DNA of 45,423 bases, taken from IMG/VR virus record IMGVR_UViG_2563366980_000004; one strand, written 5' to 3'. The first letter of the stretch is position 1. The number at the start of each line of letters is the position of its first letter. Made by a program: the position numbers and the translations under genes. The notes beneath the pieces were generated by a model. The model saw nothing but the letters and a program-made list of their open reading frames with translations, ran no database searches and had not been told where the DNA came from. This document shows positions 386 to 39,121 of the stretch, one piece after another. The stretch is from a virus (taxonomy: Duplodnaviria; Heunggongvirae; Uroviricota; Caudoviricetes).

Positions 386-1600
386 ATGGCGCTGTCTGAT
401 GCGTGGTTGCGTTCAGTCGTTGGAAAGGAACGTGATAAGGTTTTGGTTAAATCCGATCGTGATGGTCTGTCTGTCAGAGTATCACCGAAAGGTCGCGTAG
501 TGTTCCAATATCGTTATCAATGGGCAGGGAAAGGTGAGCGTCTTGATATCGGAACTTACCCGGCAACTGGATTAAAAGAGGCCAGAGAAGAAGTTATTCG
601 TCTCCGTGGTGAACTCGAGTCAAACCGTAATCCACGATTGGTCAAGCAGGCTGAAAAACGAAAAGCTACTGAAGCCATGACGGTAGAGTCTGTGATCCGT
701 GCCTGGTATGAAGCATATTGTGTAAAAAATAAAAAAGGTTCTGAACAGATACTCCGCTCGTTTGAGCTGCACCTGTTCTCTAAAATCGGGAATATCCCTC
801 ACGATGCAGCTACATTGCATGATTGGTTAGAAGTCCTGGAGCCTCTTAGCACTAAGACTCCAGCAATAGCAGACCGATTGCTAATTAACGCAAAGCAGGC
901 CCATGTCTGGGCGTATAAGAGAAAGCTCATTGAAACTCGCCCGCTGTCGGATATCACGGGTAAAGATATGGATATCCGTAAAGGTCAGAAGAAACGGTTT
1001 CTGACACATGATGAAATTAAAATCCTTTATGCTGCGATCGATGGTTCTCGAATGGTTCCTAAATACCGGGCCTTCATTAAACTATTGCTTCATTTTGGTT
1101 GCCGTAGTTCAGAGCTAATTACCGCCAGGGTGGACGATTTTGATTTCATTAATAAAGTATGGACTGTACCACCAGAACGACATAAGACTGGGGAGATAAC
1201 AGGCGAACCGCTAAAGCGGCCCATTATTGAACCGGTTGAAGAGCTTATAAAGTACGCTATTTCTATGAACAATGGTTCCGATATGCTTTTTACTAAGGAA
1301 GGAAGCAGGGAACCCGTTGGTCGGACATCATTGCAGTCGCTGCCTTACAATTTAATGCAGTATGCATGGCGGCGTTTGGGTTATCAATTCCCTCATTGGT
1401 CTCTTCATGATTTGAGGCGAACAGCACGAACAAACTTTTCTGATCTTACTGCGCCTCATATTGCAGAAATTATGCTAGGTCATAAACTGCCAGGGGTATG
1501 GCAAGTTTATGACAAGAGCGATTATCTAGAAGAACAGCGTAAAGCCTACCAAGCGTGGTGGGAGAGGGTTGAATCGATCGTTACTTGTACTGGTTCATAA
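386..1600 (+). CDS. int: Tyrosine-type site-specific integrase
   Basis: 404-aa ORF with AAGGTGAG RBS; N-terminal arm-binding-like region and C-terminal catalytic region with the conserved HxLRRT-like signature (HDLRRTART) and a tyrosine near the C-terminus (VYDKSDY); first phage gene next to the junction. Confidence 0.9.
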   Translation: MALSDAWLRSVVGKERDKVLVKSDRDGLSVRVSPKGRVVFQYRYQWAGKGERLDIGTYPATGLKEAREEVIRLRGELESNRNPRLVKQAEKRKATEAMTVESVIRAWYEAYCVKNKKGSEQILRSFELHLFSKIGNIPHDAATLHDWLEVLEPLSTKTPAIADRLLINAKQAHVWAYKRKLIETRPLSDITGKDMDIRKGQKKRFLTHDEIKILYAAIDGSRMVPKYRAFIKLLLHFGCRSSELITARVDDFDFINKVWTVPPERHKTGEITGEPLKRPIIEPVEELIKYAISMNNGSDMLFTKEGSREPVGRTSLQSLPYNLMQYAWRRLGYQFPHWSLHDLRRTARTNFSDLTAPHIAEIMLGHKLPGVWQVYDKSDYLEEQRKAYQAWWERVESIVTCTGS

Positions 1601-1808
1601 TCGAAATGATATTTTGCATATCTAGTACGCAATAAAATATGACAGTCCGCTTTGAGCTGCGGGCATTGCTAGCAGCATTTTCTGTGAAGTAACGGGAGGT
1701 TGTTCAATATTGCCTCTGAAAAGGATAACCATTCAATTCTTCATTGAAAAAACTCATCGAAGATTTTATGGAGGGATGCAATTTATTTTGAGCGAATTTA
1801 ATTCATCA

Positions 1809-1893
1809 CTAATGATCCTACATAGTTATTGCCTTGCTCACTAAAAGGTGAGATTTCATTAGCTCACCAACAATAATTAAATAGGATCATTAG
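1809..1893. repeat. Perfect 12-bp inverted repeat (CTAATGATCCTA / TAGGATCATTAG) flanking about 60 bp that holds a nested CTCAC/GTGAG hairpin
   Basis: Read directly in the AT-rich spacer between the int stop and the 3' end of the minus-strand moron. Confidence 0.35.
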
Positions 1894-1975
1894 CACTTTA
1901 TATCAGGCTATAATTTTAATAAATTACGTTATTTAAAGCCATTTTCTCCATCAAGTAATATCTTCATGCTAATGT

Positions 1976-2971
1976 TCACTTTTGTTTTAGCTTTATAATT
2001 TCTGATATCATAGTTGTTAGCTTTGAATCGGAAAGATTCTGCAGTCTATCTTTCTCAATAGAAACTGTAGTTTGTCCCTTTTCTAATATGAAATTTCTTT
2101 CTGTTTTCATTAAAAGCATTGCCAACTCTTTTATCATGTCTTCGTTCTTGAATTCTTGAGCATATTTTAGAGACATGACTTTCATCTCAATATTTGTGAT
2201 TTCATTCTGAAAATATTTGATTTCGTCAAACCCATTTTTATAGAGGCGTAGAAAAAAATAAGCAAACAATTCAACGACTATTACAAATGATAATTTAGGA
2301 AGGTGATGAATAAAAAATCCCACCCCATCCACAATGTCTGGCGCGCTGTAAAGAAAGTAAGCAAGAGATAATATCCCTGTCAACGCAATTATTGTTCCGA
2401 TTGCAAGGTTAAGCCCACCTCGTCGATTGAGTCTGTCTATTTCAGACTCTAATCTTAGAACCATATCAGTATGGAGTTTATGTAAGCTGTAGCTCTTCTT
2501 AAAATCAGATATATCGCTTTTTAGGCTGTTATCTGCCAGAAGTATTGTGTTTCCAATTATTCTCTTTTTTGCATCGGATATTAACTTCTCCCTTTCACTC
2601 TCTGTTATTTCAATGGAAACTCCGGAAGATGTTCTATTTTCAATTTCGCTCAATTTTTTATTTAGCTTAACTATTTCTTTGTGAAAAATATATCTCGTGT
2701 TTTCAATATCTCTACCACCAATTCCTTTGTTTAAATAAGAAGTCATTATTGCGACAAAAGAACCAACAAAAACTAGGGCAGTTGCTGTAAATAAAATAAA
2801 CTCTTTCTTCTCGTTTATTAAATTTACTATTGATGATGATTCCAGTTGAATGTCTGAAAGCGAAGTTTTAAGCACAAAATTCATCACAGGTGAAACCATG
2901 ATTATGGCAACAACTATAATAAATCCATATTTTTTTATAATGTAAATAAGAAGGCCAAATAAATCTTTCAT
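1976..2971 (-). CDS. Hypothetical integral membrane protein with four predicted TM helices and coiled-coil segments (AT-rich moron)
   Basis: 338-aa ORF (TTG at 2992; first ATG at 2971); hydrophobic segments at roughly residues 15-37, 66-87, 195-217 and 232-250 separated by K/E-rich heptad-like regions; markedly AT-rich relative to flanking phage genes; no family recognised. Confidence 0.7.
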   Translation of the reverse strand: MKDLFGLLIYIIKKYGFIIVVAIIMVSPVMNFVLKTSLSDIQLESSSIVNLINEKKEFILFTATALVFVGSFVAIMTSYLNKGIGGRDIENTRYIFHKEIVKLNKKLSEIENRTSSGVSIEITESEREKLISDAKKRIIGNTILLADNSLKSDISDFKKSYSLHKLHTDMVLRLESEIDRLNRRGGLNLAIGTIIALTGILSLAYFLYSAPDIVDGVGFFIHHLPKLSFVIVVELFAYFFLRLYKNGFDEIKYFQNEITNIEMKVMSLKYAQEFKNEDMIKELAMLLMKTERNFILEKGQTTVSIEKDRLQNLSDSKLTTMISEIIKLKQK

Positions 2972-6069: not shown

Positions 6070-6894
6070 TCAGGCGGTGAAAGTACCAATAAAGGTTTCT
6101 ACTTTGCTGTCCTTGAATTTCTCAACAAGCAGATCACGAAATTCGTTAGCCATTTCCTCCTGCACTGCTTCCAGCTGAATAATGCGCAGAACCAGTACAG
6201 GACGATCGCCAGTGAGAATGCTGAGGCGTAATTTAAACGGACGTTCTTTCAGGCCTTCAAACGGAACGCATTTAAATTCAAATGCCACTGGCATAATGTC
6301 TTTGGTTTTCGCTTCGACAGACTCCATCAGGGAGCGTTTGCCGCTGAAGTCATTGTCTTCAAAATCAGCGGTCTGGTTTGCTTCAATCGTGATTTTACGG
6401 ACTGCCGCAGCTGCTTTTGTTGCCTGAATAGCGTCACCATTAGCATCAAAGCCCACAAGGTAGTCGGCCCAGTCTTCAATCCATTCTGCCAGTGACTTCT
6501 GGGAGTTACGCTCGCCATTAACAGACAACAGAGCAGAGAACGGTGCTGTCTTTTTCAGTTTGAGAGTGGCGGTGTTATCTGCGTGACCTGGTTCATCAAT
6601 AGTACCCAGATTAAGCACACTGACAGCACGCATATTATCAGCATCGATAAAGCAGCGGGTGCCTTCATCTGCAAGATCTTTAGAATAACGGGTAAAGTCA
6701 TCGATGCTGGCAGTGGAAAGCGCACCACGGAAACGGAAGCGATTTAAATTAAATTTTTCCAGATCATGAATGCGGAAATTCTCAGGCAATGCCACAGCAT
6801 CGGCACCAATCTTACTGATAATTTCATTAACACCCTGAGCAGAAATAAGGGCATGGATTTGATTAATTGCGGTTGCGTCTAAGTTCTGAGACAT
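6070..6894 (-). CDS. DUF2303 family phage protein (YfdQ-like)
   Basis: 274 aa, same length and general sequence character as E. coli prophage YfdQ; conserved early-left position. Confidence 0.75.
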
Positions 6895-6959
6895 AATAAG
6901 TCCTCACTATATAAAGATATTCAGTGATGAGATAAATAATCAGTTTATTAAAAACGATA

Positions 6960-7322
6960 TTAACGACCAGCTGCGCGGAGTTTTCCGTCAGGTTCACCGG
7001 CAAGAGTCAGTAATTGTCCCTGGTCTTCCTGCAGAATAGTCAGGCGACCACCGCGATTGACATACATCGGCGTTTCGGTGGTGTCTTCTTCGGAAATTTT
7101 CCCGCGGTTAGTTGGGCGAACATATGAGAGTTTGTGTTTGATTTTCACACGGTTCTCATCAAACGGTTCGATTTCCAGATTGAGTGAGACCTTCCCTTTG
7201 GTTTTCGTGTTCATCACACCGGAAGCGACTTCACTTAGAACTGCGCCGATTTTTGTTTCAAATACGCCGCCGTCCAGCTCCCCGATAAATGCCTGCACAT
7301 CAGTACTGCGTTCACTAGCCAT
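6960..7322 (-). CDS. Hypothetical early-left phage protein (YfdP-like)
   Basis: Start taken at internal MASERSTD (ATG 7322); the upstream in-frame extension to 7508 looks non-coding (C/H/R-rich and overlaps a 10-bp inverted repeat). Confidence 0.6.
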   Translation of the reverse strand: MASERSTDVQAFIGELDGGVFETKIGAVLSEVASGVMNTKTKGKVSLNLEIEPFDENRVKIKHKLSYVRPTNRGKISEEDTTETPMYVNRGGRLTILQEDQGQLLTLAGEPDGKLRAAGR

Positions 7323-7950
7323 TTTGCTGCTCCTCATCATATCGACCCTGCAATGTCGGTTAGTTTCTCCACAAAACAGAGAAGAACACCTGCGGTGGTA
7401 GCCGCCCGGATGGATTGGGTTATGAGCCCGTCGTCCGATGATGTTCTTCTCTGTTTTGTAAAAAGAGCGGTACCAGCCGGAAGCAAGTGTACAAACTGGT
7501 ACCGCCAAAGCAGTGGCTGTTGTGGTGACCGGTGCTGATCTCCGGCTTGCGGTTATTTCAGACTCTCACGGGCATTTAATTGCCCCGCCGAACAGCTCTT
7601 TTCCGCAATAGCTGCAATGTCTTTCGCGCATCAGCCTGCGCATTCACCACAACGCTGAGAGCACTTAGCCAGTTACGGCACCACACTTTGTCGCGGTTCC
7701 ATAAATGCCCTCATCGTTGCACCCTGGTCTCTTCCCAGGCGTCAAACCGAATCGCCACGCTGGTTAGGCGTCTTATCAGCATCATCATTGACTTGCACAT
7801 TCCGGCTACCTGGTTTGTTTGCCCGAGCAAGGAGTGGATTGTCCCCTTTAACGTCCCCAGACCGCTAACGACGCATGTGCCATACGCCGTGTTACAACCA
7901 AATTTTGTTAGTACCTTGTTTGTTTGTCTGGAAAGAAAGATAAAATGAAG

Positions 7951-7989
7951 TTGCGCATTATGCAAGTGTTTTTGTTGCGAGATATGCAA
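7951..7989. promoter_or_regulatory. Candidate OL: two 15-bp TTGC-N7-GCAA palindromic operator sites
   Basis: TTGCGCATTATGCAA (7951-7965) and TTGCGAGATATGCAA (7975-7989) have the same half-site pattern as the site in the cI-cro intergenic region; positioned just beyond the cI terminator, where lambda-like pL/OL would be. Confidence 0.45.
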
Positions 7990-8000
7990 TTTAATGGGTA

Positions 8001-8025
8001 ATGAAAAGCCACCTTCGGGTGGCTA
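8001..8025 (-). terminator. Intrinsic terminator downstream of cI
   Basis: GCCACC-UUCG-GGUGGC tetraloop hairpin followed on the minus strand by TTTTCATT, about 20 nt after the cI stop. Confidence 0.5.
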
Positions 8026-8044
8026 ATTGATGAGGAGGTAAGGG

Positions 8045-8737
8045 TTAATTGTGTCGCTTAAGGGTTTGTGACTGGCTGATTAAGACCTTTCCAAAGACCA
8101 TAAACCGGTGTTCATTTTCGCTGGTAATTCCCCATTCACGGTAAATCTGGTTATCAGAAATCACCAGTAGTTTGTCAGGTATCATTTGCAGTCGTTTGAC
8201 ATAAATTTTATCATCAAAACCAAATACATAGATACCATCTCCATCAAACTGATTGATACTGACATCAACGAAGATGAGATCTCCTGGCTCAATGGTTGGA
8301 CACATACTGTCCCCACGAACGTTGATAACTTTAATGTGATTGGCTGGCCGTCCGCCAAACATCGATACAGCATTATCAGTTCTGTATTCAATGGCATGAA
8401 TCACATCAATGACATCACCGCCCTGGATAAGGCCATTTCCCGCACTGGCACTGACATCCAGCATTTCAATACGGAATACATCCTTCACCTGCGCAACATC
8501 CTCACTAATACTGTTTTTACATACAGTATTACTTTTGAAGTCTGAGGTAAAGAGATCAGCAATATCAACACCTAAGCTCCTGGCAATATTACTCAGGGCT
8601 TGTTCAGTGAATTGTTTCTGCTTACCTGTTTCCAGGCGTGAGATATTCGCCGCATCCACTCCTATTGCTTCAGCGAGATCGGCGATTTTCATGTTCTTCG
8701 CCTGGCGAAGTTGTCTGACTCGGTTTCCTATGTTCAT
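8045..8737 (-). CDS. cI: CI-type prophage repressor (HTH_XRE + S24 LexA-like peptidase domain)
   Basis: 230 aa; N-terminal HTH (LRQAKNMKIADLAEAIGVDAANISRLETGK) and C-terminal S24 signature (RGDSMCPTIEPGDLIFVD...YVKRL); divergent from the cro-like gene. Confidence 0.9.
   Translation of the reverse strand: MNIGNRVRQLRQAKNMKIADLAEAIGVDAANISRLETGKQKQFTEQALSNIARSLGVDIADLFTSDFKSNTVCKNSISEDVAQVKDVFRIEMLDVSASAGNGLIQGGDVIDVIHAIEYRTDNAVSMFGGRPANHIKVINVRGDSMCPTIEPGDLIFVDVSINQFDGDGIYVFGFDDKIYVKRLQMIPDKLLVISDNQIYREWGITSENEHRFMVFGKVLISQSQTLKRHN
8509..8528. promoter_or_regulatory. Consensus-like SOS (LexA) box inside the cI coding sequence
   Basis: TACTGTTTTTACATACAGTA matches CTGT-N8-ACAG with TA flanks; in the HTH-peptidase linker region of cI. 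Confidence 0.35.
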
Positions 8738-8834
8738 GCGTTTATTACATTTCTTTATTGCGCGTTAAGCAAATCAACTTGCGCAAAATATTTGCGTGAA
8801 ATAATATGCTCATCACGCAATATGTGGAGGTCAT
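8738..8834. promoter_or_regulatory. OR/pRM-pR divergent promoter-operator region between cI and cro
   Basis: 97-bp AT-rich spacer containing TTGCGCGTTAAGCAA (TTGC-N7-GCAA) and the palindrome CGCAAAATATTTGCG; GGAGG RBS before the cro ATG. Confidence 0.6.
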
Positions 8835-9095
8835 ATGCAATCACCATTACGGAATGTGCGTAAGGCGCACGGATTTACTTTGCAGCATGTTGCTGCTGGC
8901 GTTCAGGTCAATCCAGCGACGCTGAGTCGTATTGAAAGACTGGAACAAATTCCATCTATCGATCTTGCAGAACGTCTGGCCAATTTTTTTAAGGGTGAAA
9001 TCAGCGAAATGCAGATTCTTTATCCGGCACGTTTTCAATCTAGCCAAAACCAGAATGGGTTTAAACCACAGGAACAGGAGGTAAGCCGTGGGTAA
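8835..9095 (+). CDS. cro: Cro-like HTH_XRE transcriptional regulator
   Basis: 86 aa; HTH (GFTLQHVAAGVQVNPATLSRIER); first gene of the rightward operon. Confidence 0.8.
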   Translation: MQSPLRNVRKAHGFTLQHVAAGVQVNPATLSRIERLEQIPSIDLAERLANFFKGEISEMQILYPARFQSSQNQNGFKPQEQEVSRG

Positions 9096-9639
9096 TCATC
9101 ACTGGAAAGTGGAAAAACAGCCTGAGTGGTACGTGAAAGCTGTCAGAAAAACTATCGCGGCGTTGCCGGGGGGTTACGCTGAAGCTGCTGAGTGGCTGGA
9201 TGTAACAGAGAACGCTTTATTCAACCGCCTTCGTGCAGATGGCGATCAGATTTTCCCGCTGGGATGGGCAATGATTTTACAGCGTGCTGCTGGCACTCAC
9301 TACATTGCGGATGCTGTCGCACAGTCTGCTGGTGGGGTGTTTGTATCGCTTCCTGAAATTGAGGAAGTAGAGAACGCAGATATAAACCAGCGCCTGCTGG
9401 AAGTCATCGAACAGATCGGGAGTTACTCAAAGCAGATTCGTTCGGCAATCGAAGATGGGGTAGTGGAGCCACACGAGCAGACAGCAATTAATGATGAATT
9501 GTATCTGTCAATTTCGAAGCTCCAGGAGCATGCGGCACTGGTCTACAAAATTTTCTGCGCTCCAGAAAAGAGTGACGCCCGCGAGTGTGCAGCTCCGGGC
9601 GTCGTGGCGTTTTGTGTCTGTGGAGAAACTAACGCATGA
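9088..9639 (+). CDS. CII-like / YdaT-like early regulatory protein
   Basis: 183 aa; GTG start with AGGAGG RBS; position after cro; weak resemblance to CII/YdaT-family proteins (functional call tentative). Confidence 0.6.
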   Translation: MGNHHWKVEKQPEWYVKAVRKTIAALPGGYAEAAEWLDVTENALFNRLRADGDQIFPLGWAMILQRAAGTHYIADAVAQSAGGVFVSLPEIEEVENADINQRLLEVIEQIGSYSKQIRSAIEDGVVEPHEQTAINDELYLSISKLQEHAALVYKIFCAPEKSDARECAAPGVVAFCVCGETNA

Positions 9640-10787
9640 ACAGTTTAACGGCAAATAACCGTTTGTCGCAACAGCTGGTGGTCAGTGTCGCTGCACACCT
9701 GTTGTTACGGCATGAATGCAGATTACCAAATCACCTGGCTGTAAGTAACCACAGAGAACTTTACCTGACTGTGGGGGGCGAGTTGTGCAGGAACTTAACC
9801 GCTGGTTTCGTGACGGAAGAGGACTTTATGTTCATGTTATTCGTTGGGAGCCAGAAACACAGCGCGTTATCTATCTTCGCAAAGACTACCCGCATGAGTG
9901 CTTTAGTCCTTTGTGGAAATTCAGGCGTGATTTTGTTGAGTGTGAAGGACCACCAGCACATTGATTCTGCCATTCCGGGACGTTACACTGTTCAGGCACC
10001 TTATAAAGCGGGTGCCGGGCGTGGAAACCCGGAATTCACCAAAGCGCACAACCGCGCTCTTGCGGTTTTTTTGTGTCATGAGCAGCATTACGCCCAAATT
10101 ATGGTGGGGCGTGCAGGGCCAACTTCGGTTGGGCCGGGTTCTTTGGTGACCGGTATTTCCACCCCTGTACGTCTCACCACCAATAAGGTCGTGGAAAGCC
10201 TTGGTGGTGAGTTATTAAAAATCACCAAAGAGGCTGCCATCATGGCTACGATCCCAACCCTCACTCAACCTGAAATTGCCATCGTTGATGGTCAGGCTGT
10301 TACTTCATCCCTGGCTGTTGCCAACTTCTTCTCCAAACGTCATGACGATGTACTGAAAAAGATCCGCACGCTTGAATGTTCCGCATCATTCACTGCCCGC
10401 AATTTTTCGGTGAGTGATTACACCGATTGCACAGGCCGCAAACTACCTTGCTATCAAATAACCCGCGACGGCTTTGCGTTTCTTGCTATGGGTTTCACGG
10501 GTAAACGTGCTGCCCAGTTCAAAGAGGCATACATCAATGCCTTTAACCAGATGGAGAAACAGCTTTCAAAGCCCGCTGTACCGAGCGACGTTGCACATAA
10601 CGCCAGCGTTCTCTGTTCCTACATTTCATCAATTCATCAGGTCTGGCTGCAGCAGCTTTATCCTATGTTGGCAAAAGCCGAATCTCCGCTGGCTGTTAGC
10701 TTATATGACTATATTAATGATGCTTCGGCGCTGGCCTGCCTCATAAATTTGTCGCTGAACCCTTCAGAGGTAAGGGGGCGCAAATGA
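9636..10787 (+). CDS. Rha-family phage regulatory protein (Rha domain from ATG 10242; status of the upstream 200 codons uncertain)
   Basis: C-terminal 182 aa (MATIPTLTQPEIAIVDGQAVTSSLAVANFFSKRHDDVLKKIR...) matches the Rha domain, with an AAGAGG RBS before 10242; the same frame is stop-free back to an ATGA overlap with the upstream gene but has odd composition and an internal terminator-like hairpin. Confidence 0.5.
   Translation: MNSLTANNRLSQQLVVSVAAHLLLRHECRLPNHLAVSNHRELYLTVGGELCRNLTAGFVTEEDFMFMLFVGSQKHSALSIFAKTTRMSALVLCGNSGVILLSVKDHQHIDSAIPGRYTVQAPYKAGAGRGNPEFTKAHNRALAVFLCHEQHYAQIMVGRAGPTSVGPGSLVTGISTPVRLTTNKVVESLGGELLKITKEAAIMATIPTLTQPEIAIVDGQAVTSSLAVANFFSKRHDDVLKKIRTLECSASFTARNFSVSDYTDCTGRKLPCYQITRDGFAFLAMGFTGKRAAQFKEAYINAFNQMEKQLSKPAVPSDVAHNASVLCSYISSIHQVWLQQLYPMLAKAESPLAVSLYDYINDASALACLINLSLNPSEVRGRK
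10050..10072 (+). terminator. Intrinsic terminator-like hairpin plus T-run (tR1-like)
   Basis: ACCGC-GCTCTT-GCGGT followed by TTTTTTT. Confidence 0.45.
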
Positions 10788-12314: not shown

Positions 12315-12967
12315 TGAGTAATAAATATTGCCAGGCGCTGGTGGAGCTGCGGAACAAACCAGCCCATGAACTGAAGGAAGTGGGCGATCAGTGGCGCACG
12401 CCGGACAACATTTTCTGGGGAATTAACACCCTGTTTGGCCCGTTTGTTCTGGATCTGTTTACTGATGGTGATAACGCCAAATGTGCCGCTTATTACACTG
12501 CGGAAGACAACGCGCTGGCGCATGACTGGTCAGAACGTCTTGCGGAGCTTAAAGGTGCTGCCTTTGGTAATCCCCCGTACAGCCGCGCGAGTCAGCATGA
12601 GGGGCAATACATCACCGGCATGCGTTACATCATGAAACATGCCAGTGCTATGCGTGATAAAGGCGGGCGCTATGTTTTCCTGATCAAAGCTGCCACCAGC
12701 GAAGTTTGGTGGCCGGAAGATGCAGACCATATTGCTTTTATTCGCGGGCGTATTGGTTTTGAACTGCCAGCCTGGTTTATCCCGAAGGACGAGAAGCAGG
12801 TGCCGACAGGCGCTTTCTTCGCTGGTGCTATTGCTGTTTTCGACAAGACCTGGAAGGGACCGGCAATCAGCTACATCGGGCGCGATGAACTTGAGGCATG
12901 TGGTGAGGCCTTTCTGGCGCAGGTTCGCCAGCAGGCGGAAAAACTGGTCAGGGAGATGGCGGCATGA
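12314..12967 (+). CDS. Phage N6-adenine DNA methyltransferase (Dam-like)
   Basis: NPPY catalytic motif (FGNPPYS); start at MSNKYC with TAATG overlap. Confidence 0.85.
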   Translation: MSNKYCQALVELRNKPAHELKEVGDQWRTPDNIFWGINTLFGPFVLDLFTDGDNAKCAAYYTAEDNALAHDWSERLAELKGAAFGNPPYSRASQHEGQYITGMRYIMKHASAMRDKGGRYVFLIKAATSEVWWPEDADHIAFIRGRIGFELPAWFIPKDEKQVPTGAFFAGAIAVFDKTWKGPAISYIGRDELEACGEAFLAQVRQQAEKLVREMAA

Positions 12968-13290
12968 CGACATTAACTCAATGCCAGCAGCAGGTGCTGG
13001 ATATGCTGATTTCTTACCAGAAAGAACGTGGCTTCCCGCCAACCAATCAGGAGGTGGCAACCATGCTGGGATACCGTTCAGTGAATGCAGCGGTGGAGCA
13101 TCTTCGCGCACTGGAGAAAAAAGGCGTCATCACGATAAAGCGTGGCGTGGCCCGGGGGATAACGCTTCATACCGCGGTGAAGGACGACGACAGCGAGGCG
13201 GTCGGGATTATCCGCTCACTGCTTGCCGGTGAGGAAAACGCAAGGCTGCGTGCAACCCACTGGTTACATGAGAGAGGCCTGAAAGTATGA
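12964..13290 (+). CDS. LexA N-terminal DNA-binding domain protein (no S24 peptidase domain)
   Basis: 108 aa; TQCQQQVLDMLISYQKERGFPPTNQEVATMLGYRSVNAAVEHLRALEKKGVI parallels the LexA winged-helix domain; no catalytic Ser/Lys domain follows. Confidence 0.7.
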   Translation: MTTLTQCQQQVLDMLISYQKERGFPPTNQEVATMLGYRSVNAAVEHLRALEKKGVITIKRGVARGITLHTAVKDDDSEAVGIIRSLLAGEENARLRATHWLHERGLKV

Positions 13291-15490: not shown

Positions 15491-15507
15491 TTTTGTGGAG
15501 AAAGTTG

Positions 15508-15873
15508 ATGCGTGATATTCAAATGGTTCTTGAACATTGGGGGGCATGGGTGGCAAATAATCACGAGGATGTCACCTGGTCGTCTATTGCTGCAGGATTT
15601 AAAGGACTAATCCCTTCAAAAGTAAAATCCCGCCCGCAATGTTGTGACGATGATGCGATGATCATTTGTGGGTGCATGGCTCGCTTGAAAAAGAACAACA
15701 GCGATTTGCACGATTTATTAGTGGGTTATTATGTAGGTGGTATGACGTTTATGGCGCTTGCCCGTAAACATGGGCGTTCTGATTGCTGGGTTGGGCGTTT
15801 ATTGCAAAAGGCTGAAGGTGTAGTTGATGGCATGTTAATGATGTTAGAAATTGAGCTAGAGATGGATCGTTAG
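15508..15873 (+). CDS. Q: Antitermination protein Q
   Basis: [34 protein letters not shown]...[20 protein letters not shown] matches enterobacterial prophage Q antiterminators; ATG 15508 with GGAGAAAG RBS. Confidence 0.8.
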
Positions 15874-15957
15874 AAGACCTCTTATTGAGGGGGTAATTGA
15901 ATCAGTTTAATGTGTGGGGAGTCGATTTATTCTCCCCATTTTATTTAATTAATTTAC

Positions 15958-16404
15958 TTAAGGTTTTAATTCATCAAGACGTTGTTGGATAGTGTTTTTG
16001 CTTGCGTTGTCTGTTATAGCCATTTGTTGTACTTGCCCCATTGCCATTTGAGTTTCCATCCACATATCGGCCCACACTTTTGTATCGTTATTAACTTGAG
16101 CGATAGTAAATCTGACTTTTGATACCGGGGTTGTTGAATAGGCATTGCCGATTAACATTTGTCCAAAAACGGCAGAGCCGCCTTCCAGTTCTTTACCACA
16201 TATAACACTGCTGTTATCCGCGTTGTAAATTATCAACCCTCTACTATTGCAGTAATTCACAAGGGCATCTTTGACTTTATCTTTTGTCGTATTTTGATAA
16301 ACCCCCTCAGGTTTTCCTGATTGAGTTTTCTTTATCAATGGTACGGAAGAAGTACAACCTGAAATGATAGTTGCGCTAAGTAATAGTACAGTTATTTTAT
16401 TCAT
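15958..16404 (-). CDS. Hypothetical lipoprotein (AT-rich moron between Q and the late promoter)
   Basis: 148 aa; signal peptide with lipobox (LLLSATIISGC); AT-rich and antisense to the surrounding operon. Confidence 0.75.
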   Translation of the reverse strand: MNKITVLLLSATIISGCTSSVPLIKKTQSGKPEGVYQNTTKDKVKDALVNYCNSRGLIIYNADNSSVICGKELEGGSAVFGQMLIGNAYSTTPVSKVRFTIAQVNNDTKVWADMWMETQMAMGQVQQMAITDNASKNTIQQRLDELKP

Positions 16405-16469
16405 GTTTCTTATCCATTGTTAAGGGCATACCCACACAATTATTTTTATTGGAGATGAATAATCAACCG

Positions 16470-16497
16470 TTTACAATCGTAAAAAATCAAATATGCT
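16470..16497 (+). promoter_or_regulatory. Candidate late promoter pR'
   Basis: TTTACA - 16 nt - TATGCT, about 35-60 nt upstream of a terminator, resembling the lambda pR'/tR' short-RNA arrangement. Confidence 0.35.
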
Positions 16498-16530
16498 GTT
16501 AAGAGTGGTTACTTCGCCACACAACTTAAA

Positions 16531-16557
16531 CCCGCCGCTGAGCGGTTTTTTTGTACC
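16531..16557 (+). terminator. tR'-like intrinsic terminator
   Basis: GC hairpin CCGC-TGA-GCGG followed by TTTTTTT. Confidence 0.45.
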
Positions 16558-16650: not shown

Positions 16651-16878
16651 ATGTTAATCAGAAGGGAAAAAGACATGCTAAAACAGCAAGATATGACAGA
16701 AACCGCCGCCGCAGTCCTTCATTTCTTACCTGCTGACAAGTGGGTAACGCCACGCATGATGACGAGAACTACCGGAGTAAGCGAAGCCCAGTGCCAGTTA
16801 ATACTGACTCAGTTAGTTCTGGCGGGTCTGGCGAAGGATAACGGCGGGTACGGGAATAAATTCAGACGCTGCCAGTAA
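16651..16878 (+). CDS. Hypothetical small protein (possibly winged-helix)
   Basis: 75-aa ORF; alternative ATG at 16675 has a better RBS; no family recognised. Confidence 0.4.
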   Translation: MLIRREKDMLKQQDMTETAAAVLHFLPADKWVTPRMMTRTTGVSEAQCQLILTQLVLAGLAKDNGGYGNKFRRCQ

Positions 16879-17028: not shown

Positions 17029-18081
17029 ATGAAAAATACTGTAAGAATAAACAGTGTTGATTTAATCAACGCTGATTGCCTGCATTTTATTCAGTCCCTG
17101 CCTGATGATTCCATTGACCTGATTGTTACCGATCCGCCGTACTTCAAGGTGAAACCCAACGGCTGGGACAATCAGTGGAAAGGGGACGAAGATTACCTTA
17201 AGTGGCTGGACCACTGTCTGGCCCAGTTCTGGCGGGTGTTAAAACCTGCCGGAAGCCTTTACCTGTTCTGTGGGCATCGTCTGGCATCTGATATTGAGGT
17301 CATGATGCGTGAACGTTTCAACGTGCTTAACCATATCATCTGGGCGAAGCCGTCCGGACGTTGGAATGGGTGTAATAAAGAAAGTCTGCGCGCATATTTT
17401 CCTGCCACAGAGCGCGTTCTGTTTGCTGAACATTACCAGGGGCCATATCGCGGCAAAAGTGACGGCTATGCGGCAAAAGAAAGGGAACTCAAACAGCACA
17501 TAATGGCACCGCTGATATCGTATTTCAGGGATGCTCGTGCCGAACTGGGTATAACGGCAAAACAAATTGCCGAAGCCACAGGTAAGAAAAATATGGTTTC
17601 CCACTGGTTTGGTGCCAGTCAGTGGCAGTTGCCGAATGAGGCTGACTATCGGAAGTTACAGGCACTGTTTTCCCGTATAGCGGCAGAGAAGTTTCAGGAA
17701 CAACAACTGGAACAACCACACCACCAGCTGGTGGCATCTTATGATTCACTGAATCGCAAATATTCTGAATTGCTGGATGAGTTTAAATCTCTCCGGCGCT
17801 ATTTCTCCGTATCAGTCTCCGTGCCTTATACCGATGTCTGGATGCATAAACCCGTTCAGTTCTACCCGGGTAAACATCCGTGTGAGAAACCGGCGGATAT
17901 GCTCAGGCAAATAATCAATGCCAGTAGTCGACCTGGTGATCTGGTTGCTGATTTTTTTATGGGATCCGGTTCCACAATAAAAGCAGCAATGGCGCTGGGG
18001 CGTCGGGCCTTAGGTGTTGAGCTTGAGTCAGAGCGGTTTAACCAGACAGTGAAAGAGATAAACGAGCTGGTGGGGAAATAA
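17029..18081 (+). CDS. DNA methyltransferase (N6-adenine/N4-cytosine class, DPPY motif)
   Basis: 350 aa; IVTDPPYF catalytic motif near the N-terminus and an AdoMet-binding-like FFMGSGST motif near the C-terminus; no adjacent restriction endonuclease. Confidence 0.85.
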
Positions 18082-18364: not shown

Positions 18365-18861
18365 TGCCTCCATCATTACGAAAAGCAGTTGCTGCTGCTA
18401 TTGGTGGCGGAGCAATTGCTATAGCATCAGTGTTAATCACTGGCCCAAGTGGTGACGATGGCCTGGAAGGTGTCAGCTACATACCATACAAAGATATCGT
18501 TGGCGTATGGACTGTATGTCACGGACACACCGGAAAAGACATCATGCTCGGTAAAACGTATACCGAAGCAGAATGCAAAGCCCTCCTGAATAAAGACCTT
18601 GCCACGGTTGCCAGACAAATTAACCCGTACATCAAAGTCGATATACCGGAAACAACGCGCGGCGCTCTTTACTCGTTCGTCTACAACGTGGGTGCTGGCA
18701 ATTTCAGAACATCGACGCTTCTTCGCAAAATAAACCAGGGCGATATCAAAGGCGCATGTGACCAGCTACGTCGCTGGATATACGCTGGCGGTAAGCAATG
18801 GAAAGGCCTGATGACTCGTCGTGAGATTGAGCGTGAAGTCTGTTTGTGGGGGCAACAATGA
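18364..18861 (+). CDS. R: SAR endolysin (phage-21 R-type lysozyme)
   Basis: N-terminal signal-anchor-release segment ([18 protein letters not shown]) followed by a lysozyme domain; ATGA overlap with the holin stop. Confidence 0.9.
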
Positions 18862-19325
18862 GCAGAGTAACCGCGATTATCTCCGCTCTGGTTATCTGCA
18901 TCATCGTCTGCCTGTCGTGGGCGGTCAATCATTACCGTGATAACGCCATCGCCTACAAAGAACAGCGAGATAAAAAAGTCAGTGAGCTGAAGCAGGCGAC
19001 CGCCACCATTACTGACATGCAGCAGCGCCAGCGTTCTGCTGATGCACTCGATGCTAAATACACGAAGGAGTTAGCTGATGCGAAAGCTGAAAATGATGCT
19101 CTTCGGCGCAAGCTTGATAATGGTGGTCGGGTGTTCGTCAAAGGAAAATGCCCTGTGCCATCCTCAGCCGAAACCTCCAGCGCCTCCGGCATGGGCAATG
19201 ATGCCACCGTCGAACTCTCTCCAGTTGCTGGACGAAACGTTCTCGGTATCCGGGACGGAATTATCCGCGACCAAACAGCACTGAGAACGCTTCAGGAATA
19301 CATCAGGACGCAATGCCTTCGATGA
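18858..19325 (+). CDS. Rz: Rz i-spanin
   Basis: N-terminal TM ([18 protein letters not shown]) and coiled-coil periplasmic domain; ATGA overlap with R. Confidence 0.8.
19078..19284 (+). CDS. Rz1: Rz1 o-spanin (embedded in Rz, +1 frame)
   Basis: Lipoprotein signal (LIMVVGCSS) and Pro-rich mature region entirely within Rz. Confidence 0.7.
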
Positions 19326-35058: not shown

Positions 35059-38000
35059 ATGGGTAAAGGCAGCAGTAAGGGACATACCCCGCGCGAAGCA
35101 AAGGACAATCTGAAGTCCACGCAGTTGCTGAGTGTGATCGATGCCATCAGCGAAGGGCCGATTGAAGGTCCGGTGGATGGATTAAAAAGCGTGCTGCTGA
35201 ACAGTACGCCGGTGCTGGACAGTGAGGGGAATACCAACATCTCCGGTGTCACGGTGGTGTTCCGGGCAGGTGAGCAGGAACAGACACCGCCGGAGGGATT
35301 TGAATCCTCCGGATCCGAGACGGTGCTGGGTACGGAAGTGAAATACGACACGCCGATCACCCGGACCATCACGTCTGCAAACATCGACCGTCTGCGCTTT
35401 ACCTTCGGTGTGCAGGCACTGGTGGAAACCACCTCAAAGGGGGACCGGAATCCGTCGGAAGTCCGCCTGCTGGTTCAGATACAGCGTAATGGTGGCTGGG
35501 TGACGGAAAAAGACATCACCATTAAGGGCAAAACCACCTCGCAGTATCTGGCCTCGGTGGTGGTGGATAACCTGCCGCCGCGCCCGTTTAATATCCGGAT
35601 GCGCAGAATGACGCCGGACAGCACCACAGACCAGCTGCAGAACAAAACGCTCTGGTCGTCATACACCGAAATCATCGATGTGAAACAGTGCTACCCGAAC
35701 ACGGCACTGGTCGGCGTGCAGGTGGATTCGGAGCAGTTCGGCAGCCAGCAGGTGAGTCGTAATTATCATCTTCGCGGGCGCATTCTGCAGGTGCCGTCGA
35801 ACTATAACCCGCAGACGCGACAATACAGCGGTATCTGGGACGGAACGTTTAAGCCAGCATACAGCAACAACATGGCCTGGTGTCTGTGGGATATGCTGAC
35901 CCATCCGCGCTACGGCATGGGGAAGCGTCTCGGTGCGGCGGATGTGGACAAATGGGCGCTGTATGTCATCGGCCAGAATTGCGACCAGTCGGTGCCGGAT
36001 GGCTTTGGTGGCACGGAGCCGCGCATCACCTGTAATGCCTGGCTGACCACACAGCGCAAGGCGTGGGATGTGCTCAGTGATTTCTGCTCGGCGATGCGCT
36101 GTATGCCGGTATGGAACGGGCAGACGCTGACGTTCGTGCAGGACCGACCATCAGATAAGGTGTGGACCTATAACCGCAGTAATGTGGTGATGCCGGATGA
36201 TGGCGCGCCGTTCCGCTACAGCTTCAGCGCCCTGAAGGACCGCCATAATGCCGTTGAGGTGAACTGGATTGACCCGAACAACGGCTGGGAGACGGCGACA
36301 GAGCTTGTTGAAGATACGCAGGCCATTGCCCGTTACGGTCGTAACGTCACGAAGATGGATGCCTTTGGCTGTACCAGCCGGGGGCAGGCGCACCGCGCCG
36401 GGCTGTGGCTGATTAAAACGGAACTGCTGGAAACGCAGACCGTGGACTTCAGCGTGGGTGCGGAAGGGCTTCGCCATGTACCGGGGGATGTCATTGAAAT
36501 CTGTGATGATGACTATGCGGGTATCAGCATCGGCGGGCGCGTGCTGGCGGTGAACAGCCAGACCCGGACGCTGACGCTCGACCGTGAAATCACGCTGCCA
36601 TCCTCCGGTACCACGCTGATAAGTCTGGTTGACGGAAGTGGCAATCCGGTCAGCGTGGAGGTTCAGTCCGTCACCGACGGCGTGAAGGTAAAAGTGAGCC
36701 GTGTTCCTGACGGTGTTGCTGAATACAGCGTATGGGGGCTGAAGCTGCCGACGCTGCGCCAGCGCCTGTTCCGCTGCGTGAGTATCCGTGAGAACGACGA
36801 CGGCACGTATGCCATCACCGCCGTGCAGCATGTGCCGGAAAAAGAGGCCATCGTGGATAACGGGGCGCACTTTGACGGCGACCAGAGCGGCACGGTGAAT
36901 GGTGTCACGCCGCCTGCGGTGCAGCACCTGACTGCCGAAGTCACCTCAGACAGCGGGGAGTATCAGGTGCTGGCGCGCTGGGATACGCCGAAGGTGGTGA
37001 AGGGGGTGAGCTTTATGCTTCGCCTGACCGTGGCAGCGGATGACGGCAGTGAGCGGCTGGTCAGCACGGCCAGGACGACGGAAACCACATACCGCTTCAG
37101 GCAACTGGCGCTGGGGCGTTACACGCTGACGGTCAGGGCGGTAAATGCGTGGGGACAGCAGGGCGATCCGGCATCGGTATCGTTCCGGATTGCCGCACCG
37201 GCAGCGCCGTCGCGGATTGAGCTGACGCCGGGCTATTTTCAGATAACTGCCACGCCGCATCTTGCGGTTTATGATCCGACGGTACAGTTTGAGTTCTGGT
37301 TCTCGGAAAAGCGGATTACCGATATCAGGCAGGTTGAGACCACAGCCCGCTATCTTGGTACGGCGCTGTACTGGATAGCTGCCAGTATCAATATCAAACC
37401 GGGCCATGATTATTACTTTTATATCCGCAGTGTGAACACCGTTGGCAAATCGGCATTCGTGGAGGCTGTTGGTCAGCCGAGCGATGATGCGGAAGGTTAC
37501 CTGGATTTTTTCAAAGGCCAGATAACCGAATCCCATCTCGGCAAGGAGCTGCTGGAAAAAGTCGAGCTGACGGAGGATAACGCCAGCAAACTGGAGGAGT
37601 TTTCGAAAGAGTGGAAGGACGCCAACGATAAATGGAATGCCATGTGGGGCGTCAAAATTGAGCAGACCGAAGACGGCAGGCATTATGTCGCGGGGCTTGG
37701 CCTTAGTATGGAGGATACGGAGGAAGGCAAACTGAGCCAGTTCCTGGTTGCCGCTAACCGTATCGCGTTTATTGACCCGGCAAACGGGAATGAAACGCCG
37801 ATGTTTGTGGCGCAGGGCAACCAGATATTCATGAACGAAGTGTTCCTGAAGTATCTGACGGCTCCCACCATTACCAGTGGCGGCAATCCTCCGGTATTTT
37901 CCCTGACACCGGACGGGCGGCTGACGGCGAAAAATGCCGATATCAGCGGTAACGTGAATGCGAACTCCGGGACGCTCAATAATGTCACGATTAACGAGAA

Positions 38001-38454
38001 CTGTCGGGTTCTGGGAAAACTGTCCGCGAACCAGATTGAAGGCGATCTCGTTAAAACAGTGGGCAAAGCTTTCCCCCGGGACTCCCGTGCACCGGAGCGG
38101 TGGCCATCAGGGACTATTACCGTCAGGGTTTATGACGATCAGTCGTTTGACCGGCAAATTGTTATTCCAGCGGTGGCTTTCTGCGGTGCCAGACATGAGC
38201 GGGAGAATAGCGATACTTATTCGTCATGCCGCCTGATAGTGAAGAAAAACGGGGCTGAAATTTATAACCGAACGGCTCTGGATAATACTCTGATTTACAC
38301 GGGTGTTATTGATATGCCTGCAGGCAGTGGTGTAATGACACTGGAGTTTTCTGTATCAGCATGGTGGGTAAATGGTTGGTATCCCACAGCAAGTATCAGC
38401 GATTTGCTGGTTGTTGTGATGAAGAAAGCCACTGCAGGCATCAGTATCAGCTGA
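35059..38454 (+). CDS. J: Host specificity / central tail fibre protein J
   Basis: 1131 aa, collinear with lambda gpJ throughout; GGAG RBS. Confidence 0.9.
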
Positions 38455-38521: not shown

Positions 38522-39121
38522 ATGCGTAAATTATGTGCTGTTATTCTGTCCGCAGTAGTCTGGCTGGTTGCCGCTGGTACGCCAGCGAGCGCAGCAGAGC
38601 ATCAGTCCACACTAAGCGCCGGGTATCTTCAGACCCATACTTATATGCCAGGCAGTGATGACCTGAAGGGCATTAACGTGAAATACCGTTATGAATTTAC
38701 GGACACGCTGGGGCTGGTGACGTCATTCAGTTATGCAGGATACAAGAATCGTCAGCTGACCCGTTACAGCGATACCCGCTGGCATAAAGATTCCGTGCGT
38801 AACCGCTGGTTCAGCGTGATGGCGGGGCCGTCTGTGCGCGTGAATGAATGGTTCAGCGCGTATGCGATGGCGGGTATGGCTTACAGCCGTGTTTCGACTT
38901 TTTCCGGGGATTACCTCCGCGTAACTGACAACAAGGGGAAAACGCACGATGTGCTGACCGGAAGTGATGACGGTCGCCACAGCAACACGTCTCTGGCGTG
39001 GGGAGCTGGCGTGCAGTTTAACCCGACCGAATCCGTGGCCATTGATATTGCTTATGAAGGCTCCGGCAGTGGTGACTGGCGCACTGACGGTTTCATCGTG
39101 GGTGTCGGTTATAAGTTCTGA
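38522..39121 (+). CDS. lom: Lom outer-membrane protein (Ail/Lom/PagC/OmpX family)
   Basis: Signal peptide, beta-barrel-like alternating pattern, C-terminal GYKF; lambda lom position after J. Confidence 0.85.
   Translation: MRKLCAVILSAVVWLVAAGTPASAAEHQSTLSAGYLQTHTYMPGSDDLKGINVKYRYEFTDTLGLVTSFSYAGYKNRQLTRYSDTRWHKDSVRNRWFSVMAGPSVRVNEWFSAYAMAGMAYSRVSTFSGDYLRVTDNKGKTHDVLTGSDDGRHSNTSLAWGAGVQFNPTESVAIDIAYEGSGSGDWRTDGFIVGVGYKF

Follow-up and report, generated by a model that had tools for sequence, protein, structure and literature searches.

Envelope proteins encoded by prophages are one of the main means by which lysogens acquire resistance to phages or traits of virulence, and to our knowledge only a few Gram-negative families are understood mechanistically (Cor, Llp, Bor, Lom, SieA, and HK97 gp15). 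Prophage lipoproteins with a known role serve either in superinfection exclusion (Cor, Llp, and Ltp) or in host fitness (Bor/Iss). Cor of phages phi80, N15, HK022, and T1 and Llp of T5 are SPII-type outer-membrane lipoproteins that act in superinfection exclusion; both are encoded by accessory genes, and these genes adjoin receptor-binding genes. Late in infection, T5 Llp also masks receptors on lysing cells, which spares the loss of progeny phage on debris. Bor/Iss confers serum resistance, and Lom contributes to adhesion. Genes of this type are morons, independent units of prophage cargo in the sense of Hendrix and Juhala. Ltp and HK97 gp15 act in exclusion by preventing the DNA entry that the tape measure mediates; HK97 gene 15 is a moron located within the cluster of tail genes, and gp15 is an inner-membrane protein, not a lipoprotein. 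The report on Streptococcus phage TP-J34 describes Ltp as a prophage-encoded, surface-exposed lipoprotein of superinfection exclusion (PMC3952083). A further system concerns position rather than product: in Stx phages, Q is followed by PR′, tR′, and stx, and stx is co-transcribed under Q control (PMC7547250).

The DNA analyzed here (the window, 45,423 nucleotides in full) makes up a complete lambda-like prophage, genes for J, Lom, and the side tail fibre included, and it carries a lipoprotein gene next to Q. The kind of gene is familiar, a prophage moron for an envelope lipoprotein; the domain family to which it belongs is uncharacterized and surprisingly large. It resembles cor and llp as a phage-encoded accessory lipoprotein gene whose homologs usually adjoin tail-tip or receptor-binding genes and whose product is expected to act in the envelope. 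It differs from them in that it has no sequence relationship to either and no viral structural neighbor, the mature domain is about twice as long, and the E. coli gene is linked to the Q/pR′ module and occurs with different J receptor-binding domains. With bor/iss and lom it shares the pattern of a low-GC prophage gene, one that may likewise be transcribed independently and whose product would be associated with the outer membrane in lysogens, but the protein matches neither Lambda_Bor nor Ail_Lom in Pfam and its fold is different. Ltp and HK97 gp15 are precedents for an injection block by an envelope protein and for a location in the tail module, although there is no homology to either, the host of Ltp is Gram positive, and gp15 lacks the lipid anchor.

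Architecture of the interval between Q and the candidate late promoter

The features of the interval, together with lom, are as follows (positions are those of the window).

15493 to 15873, plus strand: Q antiterminator gene, left border of the slot (PF06530 Phage_antitermQ, E = 1.5e-50; phrog_79)
15874 to 16469, no strand: low-GC cargo block from the Q stop codon to pR′, absent from phages having both flanks
15914 to 15937, plus strand: GC hairpin between Q and the 3′ end of the lipoprotein gene (GGGGAG..CTCCCC, then ATTTTATT)
15958 to 16404, minus strand: coding sequence of the 148-aa prolipoprotein (ATG start; translation begins MNKITVLLLSATIISGCTSS)
16354 to 16404, minus strand: predicted signal peptide (residues 1 to 16) and codon of the predicted lipidated Cys17 (16354 to 16356), with lipobox I-S-G-C and Thr at +2
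16439 to 16466, minus strand: candidate sigma-70 promoter of the lipoprotein gene (TTGATT-16-AATAAT; 9/12 in a consensus scan), back to back with pR′
16470 to 16497, plus strand: candidate late promoter pR′ (TTTACA-16-TATGCT, a promoter-like site)
16534 to 16553, plus strand: tR′ intrinsic terminator (GC hairpin GCCGCTGAGCGGT, then T7)
38522 to 39121: lom (PF06316)

Lipoproteins were recognized by a basic n-region, an uncharged h-region, a lipobox [LVI][ASTVI][GAS]C, and a Cys at position 15 to 35. The window protein shows this PROSITE PS51257-type pattern throughout (K3, an h-region without charge, MNKITVLLLSATIISG|C, and Cys17), as do 19/21 close homologs and 69/76 distant ones; Cys17 itself is invariant across 76/76 family members. 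The mature protein has 132 aa, about 14.5 kDa, and a computed pI of 8.5, and UTI89 and LS4 carry it as RefSeq WP_001033965.1. The residue at +2 is Thr in the window and A, T, V, S, M, or G family-wide, never Asp. Under the Lol sorting rule, Asp at +2 causes Lol avoidance; because Asp never occurs, the rule predicts outer-membrane anchoring, and the protein is probably sorted to the inner leaflet of that membrane. The GC content of the gene is 38.0%, that of block 15874 to 16528 is 36.5%, and the 2-kb flanks have 51.9% and 48.8%. The sequence-only reading had described an antisense, AT-rich gene for a 148-aa protein with a lipobox and had proposed a lipoprotein-signal prediction; the description holds, with a minus-strand open reading frame (ORF) that carries the PS51257-type pattern and has 38% GC against about 50% in the flanks.

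That reading had also placed the gene between Q and a candidate pR′/tR′ unit, and the placement is borne out by a PF06530 Q gene and by comparative support for pR′/tR′. The segment 16478 to 16528 is common only to the window and mEp460, which has the same PF06530 Q type, and phages with a lambda-type Q (PF03589) diverge completely in this pR′ segment. From 16529 on, the late block is 99% identical in phages with unrelated Q genes, namely 720R4 (lambda-type PF03589 Q), Stx2c phages, and the cdtI phage. The succession of a Q-type-specific segment and a generic block supports the call, since 16470 to 16553 would fit a Q-specific pR′ with its initial transcribed region followed by a generic tR′. 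With tR′ about 35 to 50 nt beyond pR′, a very short constitutive lysogen RNA is predicted (16500 to 16556, plus strand), which would be analogous in origin to the StxS sRNA of Stx phages and much shorter (PMC7547250). A scan against Rfam gave no match for this RNA, and the Rfam and tRNA scans of the region returned nothing relevant.

Signals that could serve the lipoprotein gene itself are less distinct. The Shine-Dalgarno sequence is weak (GGA). A region-wide scan for the sigma-70 consensus found 7 sites against 4.1 ± 1.8 in shuffled sequences, so the candidate promoter is weak evidence, and an alignment of the regions upstream of homologs showed conservation limited to the ribosome-binding region. 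The hairpin at 15914 to 15937 is predicted at −13.2 kcal/mol on the plus strand (z = −3.3) and −11.2 kcal/mol on the minus strand (z = −2.5). It looks like a plus-strand terminator, given its U-rich tail; on the minus strand no U-tract follows the hairpin after the lipoprotein stop codon.

The position had been likened to the one that hosts stx. The likeness stands in a broad sense: both genes lie between Q and the lysis genes, and the Q-to-S interval is a cargo hot-spot (stx, tRNAs, and nanS-p). It does not extend to transcription. Cargo of the Stx type lies downstream of PR′/tR′, in sense orientation, and is Q dependent, whereas the lipoprotein gene is upstream of pR′ and antisense, and would be Q independent. 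Location downstream of pR′/tR′ in the orientation of the late genes defines Q-dependent late cargo, and the lipoprotein gene has neither property; lying upstream and antisense, it would be insulated from Q-dependent late transcription. The stx-equivalent cargo in the window comprises instead a small ORF (16651 to 16878, plus strand) and a DNA methylase gene (17029 to 18081, plus strand).

The small, conserved ORF (phrog_331) is annotated elsewhere as a 204-nt coding sequence (WP_000917723) and is the first gene past tR′ in many lambdoid, Stx2c, and cdtI phages; its matches to MobC and SoFic winged-helix regions are faint ones alone. The methylase is a 350-aa N6/N4 enzyme (PF01555) whose gene occupies the stx-equivalent position between tR′ and the holin gene and is cargo expressed with the late operon. 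In order, the region downstream of tR′ contains the small ORF, the methylase, a phage-21-type holin, lysozyme, and Rz/Rz1. Genes for RusA, a KilA-N protein, and a DUF968/YdfU protein are found upstream of Q, and upstream of RusA lies a gene for a 108-aa protein (12964 to 13290, plus strand) that is annotated in PhiR40_1 as "similar to LexA" and has the size of a lone LexA N-terminal DNA-binding domain.

Comparison of phages with matching flanks indicates that the block is cargo. The lipoprotein gene is present in 2 of the 89 phage records that match the flanks (PhiR40_1 and PhiR55_1, 99% identical), and its presence or absence differs between phages whose flanks are 98 to 99% identical. All 51/51 E. 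coli-type copies in IMG/VR have the order DUF968, Q, lipoprotein gene (antisense), tR′, small ORF, and methylase. Phage mEp460 (mEp460_4F5, LR595868.1; our locus L003), with the same Q type and the same pR′/tR′ region, carries in the equivalent of window positions 15874 to 16470 a different antisense ORF (1493 to 2419, minus strand) that encodes 308 aa and has no Pfam domain, which makes the gap between Q and pR′ a place where antisense cargo recurs. In E. coli F2_407_2_2 (NZ_CP074756.1, 20000 to 30000; L107), the block of DUF968, Q, and lipoprotein gene is joined to a Stx-phage-like late region without stx; this region encodes an HTH protein, tRNA-Ile, tRNA-Arg, DUF3927, IraM, a NanS-p-type SASA esterase, a class II holin, and PerC, and the head genes are of lambda type.

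The lipoprotein family and its genomic positions

The lipoprotein ORF is a real, conserved gene. It matches the profile of phrog_3152 (annotated "unknown function") from end to end (residues 1 to 148 of 148, E = 4.9e-104), and it is present in 187/5,426 (about 3.4%) complete E. coli genomes, chromosomal every time and annotated "hypothetical protein." Intact copies make up 54/56 of the E. coli-type set; internal stops occur in no copy, and the two exceptions are a copy with a 1-base gap and a copy truncated at a contig end. The variants among these copies comprise 12 synonymous and 10 nonsynonymous changes, a ratio consistent with purifying selection on the gene. Between genera, dN is 0.2 to 0.4 and dS is saturated, so dN/dS is not computable at that distance.

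An exhaustive profile search recovered 823 cluster representatives at an E value of ≤1e-3 and 408 at ≤1e-10, and about 30 close clusters in Enterobacterales came from a word-indexed search; homologs in other genera share 48 to 72% identity. Most members are lipoproteins of 145 to 170 aa, and some distant relatives carry C-terminal PDZ, TPR/YfiO-like, SHOCT, or BON domains, of which the PDZ, TPR/YfiO-like, and BON partners are all envelope modules. C-terminal extensions were seen in the distant members P0051, P0054, P0056, and P0058; P0100, P0116, P0142, and P0187; and P0106. The types are a Cys-rich motif (...KGPGFETYS..C.NGD....RCEFGNCR) without a Pfam match, PDZ, PDZ with SHOCT, and YfiO/BamD-like TPR. 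The window protein gave no match to Pfam-A at an E value of ≤0.01, none to NCBIfam or PADLOC, and none to PHROG besides the unannotated phrog_3152; literature searches by accession, PHROG identifier, and phage name found nothing on the protein or its family. At the level of profiles, then, it belongs to a large, unnamed lipoprotein-domain family that has no Pfam or NCBIfam model, and this membership is a new finding.

Conserved motifs of the family are TxSGxPE, IGNxYSTTP, and WxETQMxxGQ, represented in the window protein by SGKPE, GNAYST, and ETQM. Two further cysteines, Cys52 and Cys69, occur as a pair in 72 members and are jointly missing from 4; no member has just one of them. Such perfect covariation is a disulfide signature and hence a sign of periplasmic folding, and the pair points to a disulfide formed in the periplasm. 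The AlphaFold2 model (pLDDT 85.4, pTM 0.76) shows a signal-peptide helix followed by a beta-alpha-beta-beta-alpha-beta-beta-beta-alpha domain. Its nearest folds are BamC and KA1, which, like DUF4468 and Flpp3 (DUF3568), match at 5 to 12% identity and Foldseek E values of >5e-3; a resemblance to SRPBCC was also seen. The modeled fold is thus helix-grip-like, of a class typical of binding modules; the resemblance to BamC, KA1, DUF4468, and Flpp3 (DUF3568) is one of fold alone, with no shared motifs and no implied function. Foldseek against BFVD gave no viral structural neighbor at an E value of ≤1e-3, the best TM score being 0.43 among the matches listed. Matches of the family profile to PDB sequences were confined to lipoprotein signal peptides (e.g., TrwH, OutS, and TraV). 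The names "VirB7" (UniProt) and "LpoB" (JGI) attached to some relatives were rejected as automatic and probably triggered by the signal peptide, and neither family is among the listed fold matches.

The homology and structure searches that the sequence-only reading had proposed therefore led to a large unnamed family and to BamC/KA1 as a resemblance of fold only. They upheld its view that the protein is not recognizably related to Cor, Llp, and Bor, on which the Pfam, NCBIfam, PADLOC, PHROG, and viral-structure searches concur. That reading had also called the protein much longer, and the mature domain has about twice the length of that of Cor or Llp.

Beyond the E. coli-type copies, the gene was located in 32 diverged loci (48 to 72% identity) from Salmonella, Jejubacter, Morganella, Proteus, Photorhabdus, Xenorhabdus, Haemophilus, and IMG/VR contigs. 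At about 25/32 of these it is embedded in the tail module of a siphovirus and reads in the same direction as the tail genes, and this tail-tip residence is the main new fact about the family. The junctions occupied are as follows.

Between K and I: L006, L011, L077, L090, L091, L093, and L095
Directly after the tape measure gene H and before M: L085, L086, L088, L080, L014, L017, and others
Between M and L: L078 and L081
Between the tape measure gene and a J-like gene: L013, L082, and L084

The Phytobacter homolog is in the early region, between recA-like and lexA-like genes; a PF01726 (LexA_DNA_bind) protein is encoded directly downstream of it. Distant relatives in Halomonas, Sphingosinicella, Paraburkholderia, and metagenomes are chromosomal and their contexts are varied, often beside toxin-antitoxin pairs; a search for a conserved operon partner among these chromosomal members found none, the contexts being variable. 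At one locus (L101, 5001 to 6172), a family member and a DUF4160/DUF2442 pair sit among genes of LPS-modification type (a PMT/ArnT-like glycosyltransferase, a DegT aminotransferase, a GT2 glycosyltransferase, and a formyltransferase), an arrangement that suggests a small mobile islet.

The family occupies at least five distinct genomic positions. The GC content of homolog loci is 5 to 13 points below that of the flanks in most of those listed and less so in low-GC Photorhabdus, and many tail-module homologs have a strong intrinsic terminator 3′ of the stop codon. As judged from these signatures, the lipoprotein gene is mobile, self-contained cargo that has been captured by phages many times.

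A cognate-receptor model predicts linkage to the receptor-binding domain, and this prediction failed. None of the tail-module loci shares the J C terminus of the window phage. Four E. coli prophages with near-identical lipoproteins compare with the window as follows.

LS4 (L104): lipoprotein 100% identical; J C terminus 42% identical in the last 150 aa
214-4: lipoprotein 99.3% identical; little differs, and the J C terminus is 91% identical
ET300: lipoprotein 98.6% identical; tape measure, K, and J annotated as pseudogenes, and J left out of the comparison
F2_407_2_2: lipoprotein 98.6% identical; tape-measure length, head genes, and lysis genes differ

In LS4 (6421 to 9834, against 35059 to 38454 of the window), J is 99% identical over the first 800 residues, and lom is absent. 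The two J genes represent a clean swap of the receptor-binding domain between otherwise near-identical prophages. In E. coli, the lipoprotein gene travels with the Q/pR′ module and not with the receptor-binding or tape-measure gene. A blocker of the cognate receptor that is co-inherited with the receptor-binding domain was considered and is unsupported, as the same alleles occur with different J C termini and backbones in the four genomes sampled.

Proposed function and alternatives

That the gene product is an exported lipoprotein encoded by a moron is highly probable. The protein would leave the cytoplasm through Sec, receive its lipid at Cys17, and be processed by signal peptidase II, and Thr rather than Asp at +2 would probably commit it to Lol sorting to the inner leaflet of the outer membrane. 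There it would display into the periplasm a compact, helix-grip-like alpha+beta domain of 130 residues, stabilized by the Cys52-Cys69 disulfide. As the gene lies upstream of pR′ and antisense to the early-right transcript, we propose that it has its own promoter, needs no Q for its transcription, and is most likely expressed in the lysogen. The resulting envelope conversion would most likely serve to block superinfecting phages: the protein could cover an outer-membrane component, or it could capture tail-tip or tape-measure proteins on their way through the periplasm. Expression in the lysogen, sorting to the outer membrane, and anti-phage function are steps that we infer. Taken as a whole, the account of a self-contained, Q-independent moron for an envelope lipoprotein that excludes superinfecting phages is offered tentatively, as the best explanation and one somewhat short of probable.

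Of its parts, the function is the least secure. Superinfection exclusion by an outer-membrane-anchored periplasmic lipoprotein is our best guess, and we regard it as a possibility that could well prove wrong. Export and lipid anchoring imply that the protein is not a part of the virion, which is assembled in the cytoplasm, and the variable genomic position argues against a structural role. The recurrent tail-tip neighborhood tilts the balance toward exclusion; tail-tip and tape-measure proteins enter the periplasm during infection, and the known exclusion genes cor, llp, and HK97 gene 15 occupy comparable neighborhoods. Against it, the tail-module junctions may be mere permissive insertion sites, guilt by association being a weak argument, and since many distant members are chromosomal and outside prophages, the domain may have had an ancestral function unrelated to phages. 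The protein also has no PADLOC match and resembles no known exclusion protein in sequence or fold, and in E. coli its gene is not linked to a receptor-binding domain. Exclusion is therefore a leading but weakly supported hypothesis, tentatively placed ahead of the host-fitness, generic-module, and lytic-cycle alternatives discussed below.

A more specific version would make the window protein the founding phage representative of a new, widespread family of periplasmic lipoproteins in Gram-negative bacteria, with siphoviruses excluded at the stage of injection; we consider this version decidedly unlikely. If true, the protein would bind incoming H, M, L, K, I, or J beneath the outer membrane as a Gram-negative counterpart of Ltp, its repeated capture inside tail-tip modules would be explained, and the hundreds of chromosomal relatives would constitute an unrecognized layer of envelope-level phage defense. 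Whatever its role, the gene has been captured repeatedly by siphovirus prophages across Enterobacterales and Haemophilus and has hundreds of chromosomal relatives. An exclusion factor would represent a new family and possibly a new mechanism, with relevance to the prediction of host range in phage therapy; a fitness factor would be a new lysogenic-conversion gene.

The alternative that survives best is a host-fitness or virulence conversion factor whose benefit to the lysogen is unrelated to phages; possible effects include tolerance of serum, bile, or antimicrobial peptides, buffering of envelope stress, and adhesion. The gene has the architecture of bor and lom (a low-GC moron with putative signals of its own and an exported product), the same prophage carries lom, and there is no linkage to the J receptor-binding domain. 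It also occurs in uropathogenic (UTI89), avian, bovine, and canine isolates, and relatives outside phages lie in variable chromosomal regions. However, just 3.4% of complete E. coli genomes carry it, the sampled rows show no obvious enrichment by pathotype, the protein has no similarity to Bor, Iss, or TraT, and the strong preference of the homologs for tail-tip modules would be left unexplained. We consider this alternative somewhat unlikely.

The product could instead be a generic module of the periplasm that binds, for example, peptidoglycan, LPS, or an envelope protein, a hitchhiker on mobile elements with little or no phenotype in E. coli on which selection could act. The breadth of the family (823 cluster representatives), its diverse C-terminal fusions, and the chromosomal members beside toxin-antitoxin pairs in variable islands would suit such a module, as would the likeness of the fold to the protein- or ligand-binding helix-grip domains of BamC, KA1, SRPBCC, and DUF4468. 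A hitchhiker is harder to reconcile with strong conservation, with almost all E. coli copies being intact, and with a ratio of changes that resembles purifying selection, and repeated independent capture by prophages at different sites argues for selection. The generic module is, in our judgment, unlikely.

A function in the phage's own lytic cycle, by masking receptors on debris or by modulating lysis through the endolysin, the spanin, or peptidoglycan, is improbable. In most other genera, the homolog is co-oriented in the late tail operon, where Q-modified polymerase would read through the terminator and yield a late-infection product. In the window and in 51/51 E. coli-type copies, however, the gene lies upstream of pR′ on the opposite strand and converges with early-right transcription; its exclusion from late transcription disfavors a lytic role. 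The Phytobacter copy is in the early region, and a function confined to the lytic cycle would be incompatible with regulation as disparate as this.

That the ORF arose by chance or is a decaying remnant with no functional gene might be suggested by the weak Shine-Dalgarno sequence and by a promoter backed by consensus alone. The conservation of the family, the confidently modeled fold, the pairing of the cysteines, and the intact state of the copies effectively refute this reading, which can be dismissed.

The lipoprotein under study is not the only one in this prophage. A second lipoprotein ORF (19078 to 19284, plus strand) lies out of frame inside Rz (18846 to 19325) and looks like an Rz1 o-spanin. 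The prophage thus encodes at least two lipoproteins, the Rz1-like ORF included, along with the outer-membrane protein Lom.
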